Origin: Escherichia coli
GTDB lineage: Bacteria > Pseudomonadota > Gammaproteobacteria > Enterobacterales > Enterobacteriaceae
Length of the DNA stretch: 64,000 nt
Strand: one strand, 5' to 3'
Assembly (NCBI RefSeq): GCF_011045215.1
Contig: NZ_CP049201.1
The notes below the pieces were generated by a model. It made no database searches. It was not told the origin of the DNA and worked only from the letters and a program-made list of their open reading frames with translations. The position numbers were made by a program, and so were the translations under genes. Shown in pieces: positions 32,561 through 61,228 of this stretch. How positions within the stretch are numbered: the first letter of the stretch is position 1; each line of letters begins with the position of its first letter.

Positions 32561-32665
32561 TACTCATGCCGGATGCGGCATGAGTACCATATCCTTCCTG
32601 AAAATCGCGCAAATTCTATATATTGCAGAGATCATGTAGGCCTGATAAGCGAAGCGCATCAGGCT
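32561..32665. repeat. Palindromic hairpin plus REP unit downstream of glxK
   Basis: Near-perfect inverted repeat GTACTCATGCCGGATGCGGCATGAGTAC followed by a REP-like unit TGTAGGCCTGATAAGCGAAGCGCATCAGGC. Confidence 0.5.
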
Positions 32666-32682
32666 ATATTGCAAAAAAAGCC

Positions 32683-32709
32683 ACGGTATAAACCGTGGCA
32701 AAATCCAAC
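32683..32709 (-). terminator. Rho-independent terminator downstream of allE
   Basis: On the minus strand: GCCACGGTTTATACCGTGGC followed by TTTTTTT. Confidence 0.6.
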
Positions 32710-32741
32710 ATAGCTAAAAATAATCAGGCGAGTGGTATGAC

Positions 32742-54163: not shown

Positions 54164-54240
54164 GCGCCCTTAGCTCAGTTGGATAGAGCAACGACCTTCT
54201 AAGTCGTGGGCCGCAGGTTCGAATCCTGCAGGGCGCGCCA
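54164..54240 (+). tRNA. argU: tRNA-Arg (anticodon UCU), prophage integration target
   Basis: GCGCCCTTAGCTCAGTTGGATAGAGCAACGACCTTCTAAGTCGTGGGCCGCAGGTTCGAATCCTGCAGGGCGCGCCA; cloverleaf with anticodon loop CUUCUAA and encoded CCA. Confidence 0.93.
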
Positions 54241-58926: not shown

Positions 58927-59751
58927 TCAGGCGGTGAAAGTACCAATAAAGGTTTCTACTTTGCTGTCTTTGAATTTCTCAACAAGCAGATCACGAAATT
59001 CGTTAGCCATTTCTTCCTGCACCGCTTCCAGCTGAATAATGCGCAGAACCAGTACAGGACGATCGCCAGTGATAATGCTGAGGCGTAATTTAAACGGACG
59101 TTCTTTCAGACCTTCAAACGGAACGCATTTAAATTCAAATGCCACTGGCATAATGTCTTTGGTCTTCGCTTCGACAGACTCCATCAGGGAGCGTTTGCCG
59201 CTGAAGTCATTATCTTCAAAATCAGCGGTCTGGTTTGCTTCAATCGTGATTTTACGGACTGCCGCAGCCGCTTTTGTTGCTTGAATGGCGTCACCATTAG
59301 CATCAAAGCCCACAAGGTAGTCGGCCCAGTCTTCGATCCATTCTGCCAGTGACTTCTGGGAGTTACGCTCGCCGTTAACAGACAACAGAGTAGAGAACGG
59401 TGCTGTCTTTTTCAGTTTGAGAGTGGCAGTGTTATCTGCGTGACCTGGCTCATCAATAGTACCCAGGTTAAGCACACTGACGGCACGCATATTATCGGCA
59501 TCGATAAAGCAGCGGGTGCCTTCATCTGCAAGATCTTTAGAATAACGGGTAAAATCATCGATGCTGGCAGTGGAAAGTGCACCACGGAAACGGAAGCGAT
59601 TTAAATTAAATTTTTCCAGATCATGAATGCGGAAATTCTCAGGCAATGCCACAGCATCGGCACCAATCTTACTGATAATTTCATTAACACCCTGAGCAGA
59701 AATAAGGGCATGGATTTGATTAATTGCGGTTGCGTCTAAGTTCTGAGACAT
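58927..59751 (-). CDS. YfdQ-like phage protein (DUF2303-like), 274 aa
   Basis: Length and order match the CPS-53 YfdQ family as recalled; function unknown. Confidence 0.7.
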
Positions 59752-59816
59752 AATAAGTCCTCACTATATAAAGATATTCAGTGATGAGATAAATAATCAG
59801 TTTATTACGAACGATA

Positions 59817-60179
59817 TTAACGACCTGCTGCGCGGAGTTTTCCGTCAGGTTCACCGGCAAGAGTCAGTAATTGTCCCTGGTCTTCCTGCAGAATAGTCAG
59901 GCGACCACCGCGATTGACATACATCGGCGTTTCGGTGGTGTCTTCTTCGGAAATTTTCCCGCGGTTAGTTGGGCGAACATATGAGAGTTTGTGTTTGATT
60001 TTCACACGGTTCTCATCAAACGGTTCGATTTCCAGATTGAGTGAGACCTTCCCTTTGGTTTTCGTGTTCATCACACCGGAAGCGACCTCACTGAGAACTG
60101 CGCCGATTTTGGTTTCAAATACGCCGCCGTCCAGCTCCCCGATAAATGCCTGCACATCAGTACTGCGTTCGCTAGCCAT
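59817..60179 (-). CDS. YfdP-like phage protein, 120 aa
   Basis: Start MASERSTDVQ with SD AGGAG 6 nt upstream (the ORF track extends further 5' into GC-rich sequence, which I reject as coding). Confidence 0.65.
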   Translation of the reverse strand: MASERSTDVQAFIGELDGGVFETKIGAVLSEVASGVMNTKTKGKVSLNLEIEPFDENRVKIKHKLSYVRPTNRGKISEEDTTETPMYVNRGGRLTILQEDQGQLLTLAGEPDGKLRAAGR

Positions 60180-60649
60180 TTTGCTGCTCCTCATCATATC
60201 GACCCTGCAAGGTCGGTTGGTTTCTCCACAAAACAGAGAAGAACACCTGCGGTGGCAGCCGCCCGGATGGATTGGGTTATGAGCCCGTCGTCCGGTGATG
60301 CTCTTCTCTGTTTTGCAAAAAAGGACGGTACCAGCCGGAAGCAAGGGTACAAACTGGTACCGCCAGGACTACACACAGCATAAAGTTGTGGTGCCGGGTG
60401 CCTCCCGGTGCCTGGCGAAGGTTGCACACCAGGCGGGTGGGTATCCACAGAAGGTCGACTGTCAGCCTCAACCTTAACCCGCGTGCGCTGAGCCGCATTC
60501 ACCACAACGCTAAGGATTCTCTCTGGTTGAAAATACTTAGCTGTTATGTGCCTGCTTTTAGCCACATCAGGCGAGGTGGACCTGGTTATTCCCCAACAAC
60601 AAGGATTCGGTTAATCTGGATATCCCCAACAACAATAAGAGTATTCAAT

Positions 60650-61165
60650 GTGATCGCTGAATTAACGGCAGCAATGACGGCTATTCGTGAAACAGCCCAG
60701 ATTGCAAAACTAATGAACGAGGCAAAAACTCAAGCTGAAGTAAATGCGGCTATTGGTGAGCTAAACTCAAAGCTTGCGTCTATTCAGCGCGAATGCGTGT
60801 CTCTCGTTGAACTGGTGGGCTCTTATCAAGAAATAAATGCTTCTCTCAAAGCTAAAATTGCAGAATTCGAAAACTTTGAGGCTCAGACGGAAGGCTATAT
60901 CCTTAACCAACTTGAGTCGGGTACTTTTGTATACTCGAAGGAGGTAATCGTGAACGGTGGCAGCATAACCATGCATCTTTGCCCAAAATGTTTTGGACAA
61001 AAGATAGTATCGATACTTCAACCATTCCCGGTTAGCGAAGATGAGCTTTTTCATAAAAGCAGGTGCCTCCACTGTGAAAATAAGTTTCTGATGAATAAAA
61101 ATCCGGATTACGTATCGCCTCCATCCATTGAGGAGTTGTCCAGAAAACTTAACGGCAATCTGTAG
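60650..61165 (+). CDS. Hypothetical moron protein: N-terminal coiled coil plus C-terminal CxxC...CxxC zinc-ribbon-like motif (about 165-172 aa)
   Basis: Protein-like composition starts near GTG 60650 or ATG 60674; HLCPKC...CLHCENKF; own terminator downstream; convergent with cI and antisense to the early-left operon. Confidence 0.55.
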   Translation: MIAELTAAMTAIRETAQIAKLMNEAKTQAEVNAAIGELNSKLASIQRECVSLVELVGSYQEINASLKAKIAEFENFEAQTEGYILNQLESGTFVYSKEVIVNGGSITMHLCPKCFGQKIVSILQPFPVSEDELFHKSRCLHCENKFLMNKNPDYVSPPSIEELSRKLNGNL

Positions 61166-61203
61166 ATTACTACTGTTGTGGATATCCAGATTGTTAAAGA
61201 GCT

Positions 61204-61228
61204 AAGCGTCCTGTAGGGCGCTTTTTTG
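61204..61228 (+). terminator. Rho-independent terminator of the moron gene
   Basis: AGCGTCCTGTAGGGCGCT hairpin (7-bp stem with one G-U pair) followed by TTTTTTGTT. Confidence 0.6.

Follow-up and report, generated by a model that had tools for sequence, protein, structure and literature searches.

A stretch of 64,000 nucleotides of Escherichia coli DNA (contig NZ_CP049201.1; hereafter the window) contains a lambdoid prophage integrated beside a tRNA gene (54164-54237). In the immunity region of this prophage, a hairpin-dense block (60185-60649) separates the first early-left gene, yfdP, from a moron gene. Here, we report that this block is most likely an untranslated, modular leader of the early-left operon (yfdP-yfdQ-yfdR...int), placed behind the repressor-controlled promoter pL. 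The RNA is encoded on the minus strand, co-directional with yfdP. Its core is best classed as a diverged member of the STnc100/PasD superfamily in the wider sense, and it is followed by an intrinsic terminator and by a three-way junction that carries a copy of the initiator-tRNA anticodon arm. The element thus belongs to a known family; its variants B and C, the pseudoknot in its core and the tRNA-arm junction are, as far as our searches show, the new parts.

The block is structured on the minus strand and non-coding

As the first-pass annotation had noted by eye, the block is richer in GC (0.555-0.58 across 60100-60600, i.e., 55-58%) than the flanking phage DNA (0.35-0.49, i.e., 35-49%). The strand had been left open. 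Folding of the 421 nucleotides from 60180 to 60600 as minus-strand RNA yielded -177.8 kcal/mol, compared with -143.8 +/- 6.4 kcal/mol for 100 dinucleotide shuffles, none of which folded as well (z -5.28). The plus-strand fold was weaker by the same type of control (z -2.84). Therefore, the density of structure in the block is genuine and biased towards the minus strand. The four inverted repeats pointed out at first are all present, with some coordinates off by 1-10 nucleotides. The inverted-repeat search placed a perfect 13-bp stem at 60229-60241 with 60303-60315, which extends to 24 nucleotides at 83%, the pair CGGTACCAG/CTGGTACCG at 60326-60334 with 60354-60362, CCGGG/CCCGG at 60394-60408 as given before, and CCTGG/CCAGG at 60411-60415 with 60429-60433 instead of 60419-60443.

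That the block has no convincing open reading frame (ORF) was borne out as well. The ORFs are of low complexity and overlap one another. When all five local ORFs were compared by tblastn with seven diverged homologous loci, the matches fell in several frames and on both strands at once and were broken between frames, so that no single reading frame is conserved across these loci; ST64B moreover differs from the window by a 1-nucleotide indel within the most conserved part of the core. A decayed protein-coding gene with incidental hairpins would nevertheless accord with three observations. RefSeq (PGAP) annotates only a pseudogene here, a 'frameshifted hypothetical protein' in strain IHE3034; small hypothetical ORFs are annotated at this place in several phage records; and a minus-strand ORF of 123 amino acids matches phrog_33599, a PHROG of 62 residues and unknown function, over residues 82-117. 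However, this sole protein-family match is confined to one hairpin, the three-way-junction stretch, and the conservation follows the helices with compensatory changes. On the grounds of the broken two-strand matches and of this helix-following conservation we rejected a decayed gene, which is barely credible, and the RefSeq call reads as an artefact of nucleotide conservation.

The core is related to the STnc100/PasD RNAs

The first-pass annotation could not place the block in any RNA family. However, the comparison with Rfam that it had proposed (cmscan) returned an end-to-end match to STnc100 (RF02076) on the minus strand (60538-60315; 40.3 bits, E 2.6e-6; model positions 1-206 of 206), which lies just below the gathering score. 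Copies at equivalent positions score alike, with 39.5 bits in SfV, 40.6 in phiES15 and 35.1 in ST64B (35-41 bits when a Klebsiella phage is included), and the canonical copy of 933W, downstream of stx2B, reaches 207.7 bits. To collect relatives, viral contigs were searched for exact occurrences of the 22-mer CACCGGGAGGCACCCGGCACCA that the copies share; pooled with previously retrieved loci, these amounted to 133 instances, which fall into about 22 sequence clusters. A second scan with TTGTGGTGAATGCG brought in further lineages. A covariance model built from 26 relatives (model R1), from which the window and the SfV and ST64B lineage had been left out, matched the window independently and at full length (60505-60388, minus strand; 69.5 bits, E 1.9e-12). 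Model R1 detects exactly one copy in the window and in the whole of the sequenced 45-kb phage PhiR49_1, which carries a 100% identical element, and no match in HK022 or in the K-12 prophage CPS-53. At least part of the block stretch occurs in 3089 of 5426 complete E. coli genomes, that is, in more than half of them.

The core domain (60385-60508, minus strand) comprises 124 nucleotides and is closed by GUUGUGGUG/CACCACAAC. Its helices are the closing helix P0 (60508-60500 with 60393-60385), the P1 hairpin (~60497-60484), P2 (60482-60477 with 60438-60433), P4 (60432-60427 with 60417-60412) and P5, CCGGG-AGGCA-CCCGG (60408-60394). In addition, AAGGUUG (60475-60469) pairs with the P4 loop CAACCUU (60424-60418) to form a pseudoknot of 7 bp. 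All copies share one plan, consisting of the closing helix (R)UGGUG/CACCA(Y), a GAAU junction, P1, a short strand after P1, variable hairpins, P4 and P5.

RNAalifold applied to 26 diverse members recovered P0, P1 and P5. The terminal pair of P0 is exchanged between A-U and G-C (14 G-C, 10 A-U, 2 G-U), and three pairs of P1 show compensatory changes. MAFFT failed on the variable middle of the domain across lineages, and P2, P4 and the pseudoknot were tested with our own scripts. In nearly every lineage the P4 loop can pair with the strand that follows P1, by sequences that are unrelated between lineages: AAGGUUG/CAACCUU in the window, AAGGCUGG/UCAGCCUU in phiES15, GAACUGGCA/UGUCAGUUC in L028, GGCAAA/UUUGCC in L063, CUGGUG/UACCAG in 933W and AUCAGCA/UGCUGAU in the largest cluster (c0). 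A pseudoknot helix score of at least 5.5 was reached by 82% of the cognate but only 16% of the non-cognate pairs (17 independent sequence types; Mann-Whitney p = 2e-8). Taken together, the family core is a conserved pseudoknotted fold with helices supported by covariation. The pseudoknot is absent from the Rfam consensus structure of STnc100, as is the word from the 2026 preprint linking PasD to STnc100, and as far as the literature and the Rfam comparison go it is new. The first-pass annotation was right in suspecting a structured non-coding RNA or a long regulatory leader, and the compensatory changes that it had suggested looking for are found in the stems of homologues from Shigella, Salmonella, Klebsiella and Cronobacter phages.

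The RNA PasD depends on Hfq; it has been verified by Northern blotting and RIL-seq and has RIL-seq targets (PMC8550237); its relation to STnc100 has been reported (bioRxiv 10.64898/2026.05.13.724894). In strain EDL933, 1 of 11 STnc100 copies was positive in Northern blots (PMC5331693). The window copy shares with these RNAs the core elements (closing helix, GAAU junction, P1 hairpin and invariant CCGGG-AGGCA-CCCGG), the linker and intrinsic terminator downstream of them, the full-length model match and the occurrence in phages of enterobacteria. In contrast to them, it scores under the Rfam cut-off (40.3 versus 47 bits), has UGCG-GCUCAG-CGCA as P1 in place of CCCCC..GGGG, possesses an extra P2 helix and an upstream hairpin, and is devoid of a promoter abutting its 5'-end. 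Moreover, it resides in the early-left leader behind pL, whereas they occupy the late region, with Q on one side and the lysis or stx genes on the other.

Three variants of the domain differ in P1 and in location

Variant A, the STnc100/PasD type with P1 of the form CCCCC..GGGG, is mostly located between Q and the lysis genes. Of its 14 clusters, 5 have promoter-like hexamers that end 4-9 nucleotides upstream of the first paired base, and 10 have a terminator on the 3'-side of the domain. By these features, variant A looks like an independent small-RNA gene.

Variant B, the type of the window, has the P1 sequence given above, a closing helix of 9 bp and the additional P2, which covaries (GCGGGU/ACCCGC in the window, GCGGGG/CCCCGU in phiES15, GCGAUGA/UCAUCGC in L063). 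It is found in early-left leaders, ahead of yfdP-type genes or of kil/gam, and promoter-like hexamers abut the domain in none of five lineages, which suggests that the domain is embedded in a longer transcript. Upstream of it the minimum-free-energy fold contains a hairpin, P(-1) (60509-60552, minus strand; GCUAAG.AUUUUC/GAGAAU.CUUAGC). Relatives carry hairpins of different sequence at this position (AUGAAGCGCAUU/AAUGCGCUUCAU in phiES15, GUAAGAGCAUUG/CAGUGCUCUU in variant C, CACAAUCAAAA/UUUUGAUUGUG in L017), and the P(-1) sequence covaries between variant-B lineages. The motif CACAAC at the foot of P(-1), CAUAAC in the window, can pair with GUUGUG, the first six bases of the closing helix; the two pairings may be mutually exclusive.

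Variant C, present in mEp460 (L005, 3200-3328) and many contigs, has the closing helix and GAAU in common with the other types, but its P1 and P5 hairpins are different ones. The loops of these two hairpins, GGCUGAU in P1 and AGAUCAGCA in P5, are complementary (GCUGAU/AUCAGC) and likely form a loop-loop kissing interaction, which co-varies in L231 and L226. The variant is missed by Rfam, scores 25.7 bits with model R1 and occurs in IMG/VR loci including L138, L139, L145, L158, L162, L226 and L246. In mEp460 it takes the place of variant B, the terminator and downstream leader that follow being the same. At other loci it is found between Q-like genes on one side and a terminator with the lysis genes on the other, or it comes first after a strong promoter, with tRNA arrays further downstream. 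To judge by our searches, the variants B and C that are embedded in leaders, together with their upstream hairpin, are new.

In three loci (L150, L159 and L231) we observed units in tandem, interleaved with tRNA genes ('RNA islands'), and in L150 also a stand-alone upstream hairpin module, CACAUAACAGG...CCGUUGUG, that lacks the domain.

A terminator separates the domain from yfdP

On the minus strand, the single-stranded linker UGCUGUGUGUAGUC (60367-60380) connects the domain to a Rho-independent terminator (60317-60364) with an 11-bp stem, GGCGGUACCAG/CUGGUACCGUC, a loop of 19 nucleotides, and a C followed by six U residues (60322-60317). The terminator was seen by the inverted-repeat search, in the minus-strand fold and by our own scan for a hairpin plus T-run, and the T-run is present on the minus strand only; the built-in terminator scan, with its loop limit of 8 nucleotides, missed the hairpin at 60364-60317. 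Hence, the GGTACCAG stem described in the first-pass annotation does exist, yet it is not just a hairpin but part of a minus-strand terminator. ST64B and phiES15 have terminators of different sequence at the same place. The linker motif is nevertheless kept in ST64B (UGCUGUGUGAAGUC), phiES15 (UGCUGUGUGUAGUC), L200 and L243, and is a candidate seed or protein-contact site. An RfaH ops site was also considered; GGCGGTAC in the terminator arm matches at 7 positions only and is not kept in ST64B or L243, and the idea was dropped.

By eye, no promoter-like sequence is present between the terminator and yfdP; therefore, early-left expression seems to require read-through of the terminator. A stringent scan for the sigma-70 consensus returned nothing in 59700-62400, missing even pR and pL, and is thus uninformative. 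The region of the yfdP start (60177-60217, minus strand) contains a small hairpin in the fold (60217-60198), in place of which ST64B has a different one, the Shine-Dalgarno sequence GAGGAG (60192-60187) and the start codon (60179-60177).

The three-way junction contains an initiator-tRNA anticodon arm

The '13-bp stem with a 62-nt insert' that had been described at first folds into a three-way junction (60229-60315, minus strand), built of a 19-bp outer stem, arm A (CCGGA..UCCGG enclosing GGG-CUCAUAA-CCC) and arm B (GCGG-CUGCCA-CCGC). In 12 distinct sequences (alignment A3), 96% of the cells are paired, compared with 44-49% in slid controls. Five pairs are changed on both sides, a number reached by 1 of 500 shuffles (mean 1.6).

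The tip of arm A, CGGGCUCAUAACCC (60287-60274, minus strand), is identical in 14 of 14 nucleotides to nucleotides 28-41 of E. coli tRNA-fMet, the sequence of which was verified against RefSeq. The match spans the anticodon loop CUCAUAA and three G-C pairs; three G-C pairs in the anticodon arm mark initiator tRNAs. The exact 13-mer occurs once in the window, where 0.06 occurrences are expected even with one mismatch allowed. The first-pass annotation had described the block as not tRNA-like. This holds insofar as ARAGORN finds no tRNA in 59900-61500, but the insert carries an exact 14-nucleotide copy of the initiator anticodon arm.

In two IMG/VR contigs, L141 (7733-7747) and L145 (5900-5914), a compact version of 67 nucleotides lies downstream of a phage tRNA array, 23 nucleotides from its last tRNA, with GCCA at its end. 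All its helices differ, and ARAGORN finds no tRNA at either copy. This unit looks like a D-arm-less tRNA-like unit that is missed by tRNA finders. In L162, the motif is situated within the upstream hairpin of a variant-C unit, and the stems that flank it differ in L141, L145 and L162. The copies of ST64B and Klebsiella read CUCAUUA (A37 to U). A literature search found no paper on a phage mimic of the initiator-tRNA anticodon arm, and the junction is new as far as our searches show.

The leader lies behind the probable pL

The immunity region has a leftward layout, with cI (62177-61485) followed by a terminator (61465-61448). Directly downstream lies the probable pL (61380-61430, minus strand) with the -35 sequence TTGCAT (61408-61403), a 17-bp spacer and the -10 sequence TATCTT (61385-61380); the leader transcript probably originates from this TTGCAT-17-TATCTT promoter. 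Two operators, TTGCGAnATATGCAA (61394-61408 and 61416-61430), overlap this promoter, and related sites are present between cI and cro (62198-62260). The same arrangement of promoter and operators directly after the cI terminator is found in mEp460 and ST64B.

In the window, the moron (60650-61165, plus strand; phrog_1244, function unknown), which has its own terminator (61204-61223), is inserted between pL and the block, oppositely oriented to the leader. In ST64B the same leader directly follows pL with no such gene annotated at the moron position; therefore, the block represents the promoter-distal part of the early-left leader, running on the minus strand towards yfdP. SfV carries a different gene at the moron position. 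A link between the block and the 60650 gene, as once suggested, is thus not supported. In SfV, ST64B, phiES15 (there in front of kil/gam) and L063, a copy sits at the equivalent location, flanked by the cI side and the first early-left gene. In contrast, CPS-53 of K-12 MG1655 (L252, 2473246-2473604) still has yfdP with its ribosome-binding site, but of the structured leader nothing is left; iteron-like GATTTTGACG repeats are located upstream of yfdP instead. K-12 transcriptomics is therefore of no help. PawZ, at one point taken for a small RNA of CPS-53, is in fact a 15-nucleotide argW fragment at the attachment site.

Several further features of the region were observed. The moron is bracketed by a 26-nucleotide inverted repeat, AATCTGGATATCCCCAACAACAATAA/TTACTACTGTTGTGGATATCCAGATT, of 85% complementarity (60590-60638, 61167-61192), and a third, direct copy of TCCCCAACAACAA is found 33 nucleotides away from it; L243 and L093 have a similar GGATATCCAG/TTGTTGTTG motif ahead of the unit. 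Recombination may have left the repeat as a scar, or it may be a regulator site or a divergent promoter region. A second conserved structured element, AGCGAACAGGCAGGACGCCCA..GGAUGAUUCGCU, lies near the start of the pL transcript (window ~61235-61300, minus strand; ST64B locus L004 ~3595-3665, minus strand). Its outer helix covaries from AGCGAA/UUCGCU to AACGAA/UUCGUU, and its inner hairpin likewise, across four lineages; the ST64B copy starts at about the transcription start, like putL in HK022. This element is a candidate for the missing cis-antiterminator. The short motifs that it shares with put (CGAAC.GGC, GGAUGA) are at chance level, its topology is different, BLAST of putL against the pL leaders gave E values of 8-33, and the consensus folds differ.

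About 3 kb to the right of the element, isrK and the C4 antisense RNA score above the Rfam gathering scores in SfV (L003, 5987-6175), ST64B (L004, 5732-5920) and mEp460 (L005, 5675-5863), within a gene annotated as 'transcriptional regulator' or antirepressor; the corresponding stretch of the window (up to 64000) gave no match. Unrelated to the leader, two adjacent small RNAs of the host at 32601-32735, ES036/CssrF (38.1 bits) and STnc480 (85.8 bits), likewise exceed their gathering scores.

Discussion

The analysis establishes the strand, the non-coding nature, the family link, the helices with the pseudoknot, the anatomy of the terminator and the position behind pL. Upon loss of the repressor, transcripts would start at pL, about 1 kb upstream, and run through the leader, crossing in this phage the inserted, oppositely oriented moron. 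The upstream hairpin and the pseudoknotted domain would fold, followed by the linker and the terminator, where RNA polymerase would either stop (60317-60322) or read through into yfdP-yfdQ-yfdR...int. Termination would release a structured STnc100/PasD-like RNA ending in a hairpin and U-tail, the typical Hfq-binding end of the family, and the terminator would double as an attenuator that limits early-left expression. The read-through RNA would present the junction with the initiator-tRNA anticodon arm just before the yfdP ribosome-binding site. A discrete small RNA would need 5'-processing or a weak local promoter. On balance we moderately favour this picture, in which the leader would give rise to either a terminated RNA or the read-through operon mRNA.

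A number of points weigh against it. The window copy does not reach the STnc100 gathering score of 47 bits, and a discrete RNA from this copy is a prediction from sequence. Owing to the lack of a 5' promoter, such an RNA would have to be processed from a transcript of ~0.5-1 kb. The linker shows no excess of complementary sites in the phage (6 with at most 3 mismatches versus 3 expected, not significant), and its use as a seed against phage mRNAs was discarded. In the variant-B lineages L063, L017 and L028 no terminator follows the domain, and termination is thus not obligatory to the module. We found no antiterminator that would carry pL transcripts past the terminator, and no N-like protein among the ORFs tested. 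Finally, the pseudoknotted core of 124 nucleotides goes far beyond what base pairing would demand of a small RNA, and thereby hints at another activity.

One such activity might be control of elongation in cis, in that the pseudoknotted domain, alone or together with the upstream hairpin, would bind the transcribing RNA polymerase or block Rho and so allow the long untranslated leader and the terminator to be crossed without N, on the model of the HK022 put RNA or the Bacillus EAR RNA. The missing N-like protein would fit, as would the terminator between domain and genes with no promoter in between. The units of variants B and C are promoter-proximal leaders of read-through operons, be it early-left operons, lysis operons after Q or untranslated tRNA arrays, and put RNA acts from exactly such a position in HK022 (PMC9378689). 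However, there is no similarity to putL or putR in sequence or structure, and the single copy of the phage has no counterpart downstream of pR. From variant-A relatives, which contain this core too, discrete RNAs of the length to be expected accumulate (PMC5331693, PMC8550237), and since variant A terminates just upstream of the lysis genes in lysogens, an antiterminating core would be lethal there. We regard this explanation as unlikely. The same holds, more strongly, for a role of the junction, and maybe of the entire RNA island, in engaging a host factor that recognises the initiator-tRNA anticodon arm, be it a VapC-type anticodon nuclease, the 30S P site with IF3, or MetRS, the outcome being control of yfdP translation or protection of the phage. 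The identity to tRNA-fMet over 14 nucleotides including the three G-C pairs, the retention of the motif while its flanking stems covary, its position 36 nucleotides upstream of the yfdP Shine-Dalgarno sequence and the copies that follow tRNA arrays and precede GCCA argue for it. In addition, VapC toxins of Shigella and Salmonella cleave tRNA-fMet in the anticodon stem-loop (PMC7180214), and a role of the junction as a decoy or sensor for VapC is therefore conceivable, if speculative. On the other side, the resemblance is purely sequence-based and was noticed post hoc, ST64B and Klebsiella have A37 replaced by U, the window copy has a 19-bp outer stem and no CCA, and the motif could be a harmless relic of a phage tRNA-Met gene. 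Such engagement of a host factor appears quite unlikely. Slightly more remote is its extension to the entire leader, in which the junction would act as tRNA mimic and the adjacent core as a binding platform for protein or polymerase, and not just as the scaffold of a base-pairing small RNA; if true, this RNA island would couple early-gene expression to host attacks on translation initiation, or shield it from them. That the block serves the opposite strand, for instance as the 5' leader or promoter region of the moron, is highly improbable. The moron does start directly after the block on the plus strand, and repeats of TTGTTGTTGGGGA(A)TA(A/T)CCAG occur at 60590-60638, but the much weaker plus-strand fold, the T-run and family match on the minus strand and the leader of ST64B, which has no such gene annotated beside it, as well as the different gene in SfV, speak against it.

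Like HK022 put, which has a non-trivial tertiary pairing (PMC9378689), the element is a structured RNA in the leader of the pL operon of a lambdoid phage without N, upstream of terminators. The two differ in size and build (124 nucleotides and five helices in the window core, ~70 nucleotides and two stems in put), in copy number, put-like copies behind both pL and pR being ruled out by the single copy in the 45-kb PhiR49_1 and in the window, and in that relatives of the window core terminate efficiently right after the domain. No cross-match by cmscan or covariance model was obtained. A likeness of CACCGGGAGGCACCCGGCACCA to put, supposed at an early stage, proved to be wrong: HK022 contains no match to this core motif.

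Promoter-proximal RNAs that end at an intrinsic terminator, with the operon depending on read-through, are known from the 6S RNA of lambda pR'-tR' and from StxS of Stx phages, both of which are short, simple and dependent on the Q protein. Variant-C relatives hold the corresponding position from Q to terminator to lysis genes, whereas the window RNA is long, pseudoknotted and part of the early-left operon. In the E. coli thrS operator, a hairpin mimicking a tRNA anticodon arm is located just upstream of the ribosome-binding site, as is the anticodon-arm hairpin of the window. The latter, however, copies tRNA-fMet and not tRNA-Thr, lies in a phage leader inside a three-way junction, and has relatives that are free-standing at the end of phage tRNA arrays.

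In pathogenic E. coli, the STnc100/PasD RNAs rank with the most abundant small RNAs of prophages, and they have been treated as simple Hfq-type riboregulators. Our results indicate that phages of Escherichia, Shigella, Salmonella, Klebsiella and Cronobacter have diverged versions (variants B and C) incorporated in their early-left, lysis and tRNA operon leaders, and that in the window leader an STnc100-like core is paired with a copy of the initiator-tRNA anticodon arm. They raise the question of how lambdoid phages without N pass a strong terminator to express their early-left genes, among them the recombination functions encoded at the distal end of this operon.

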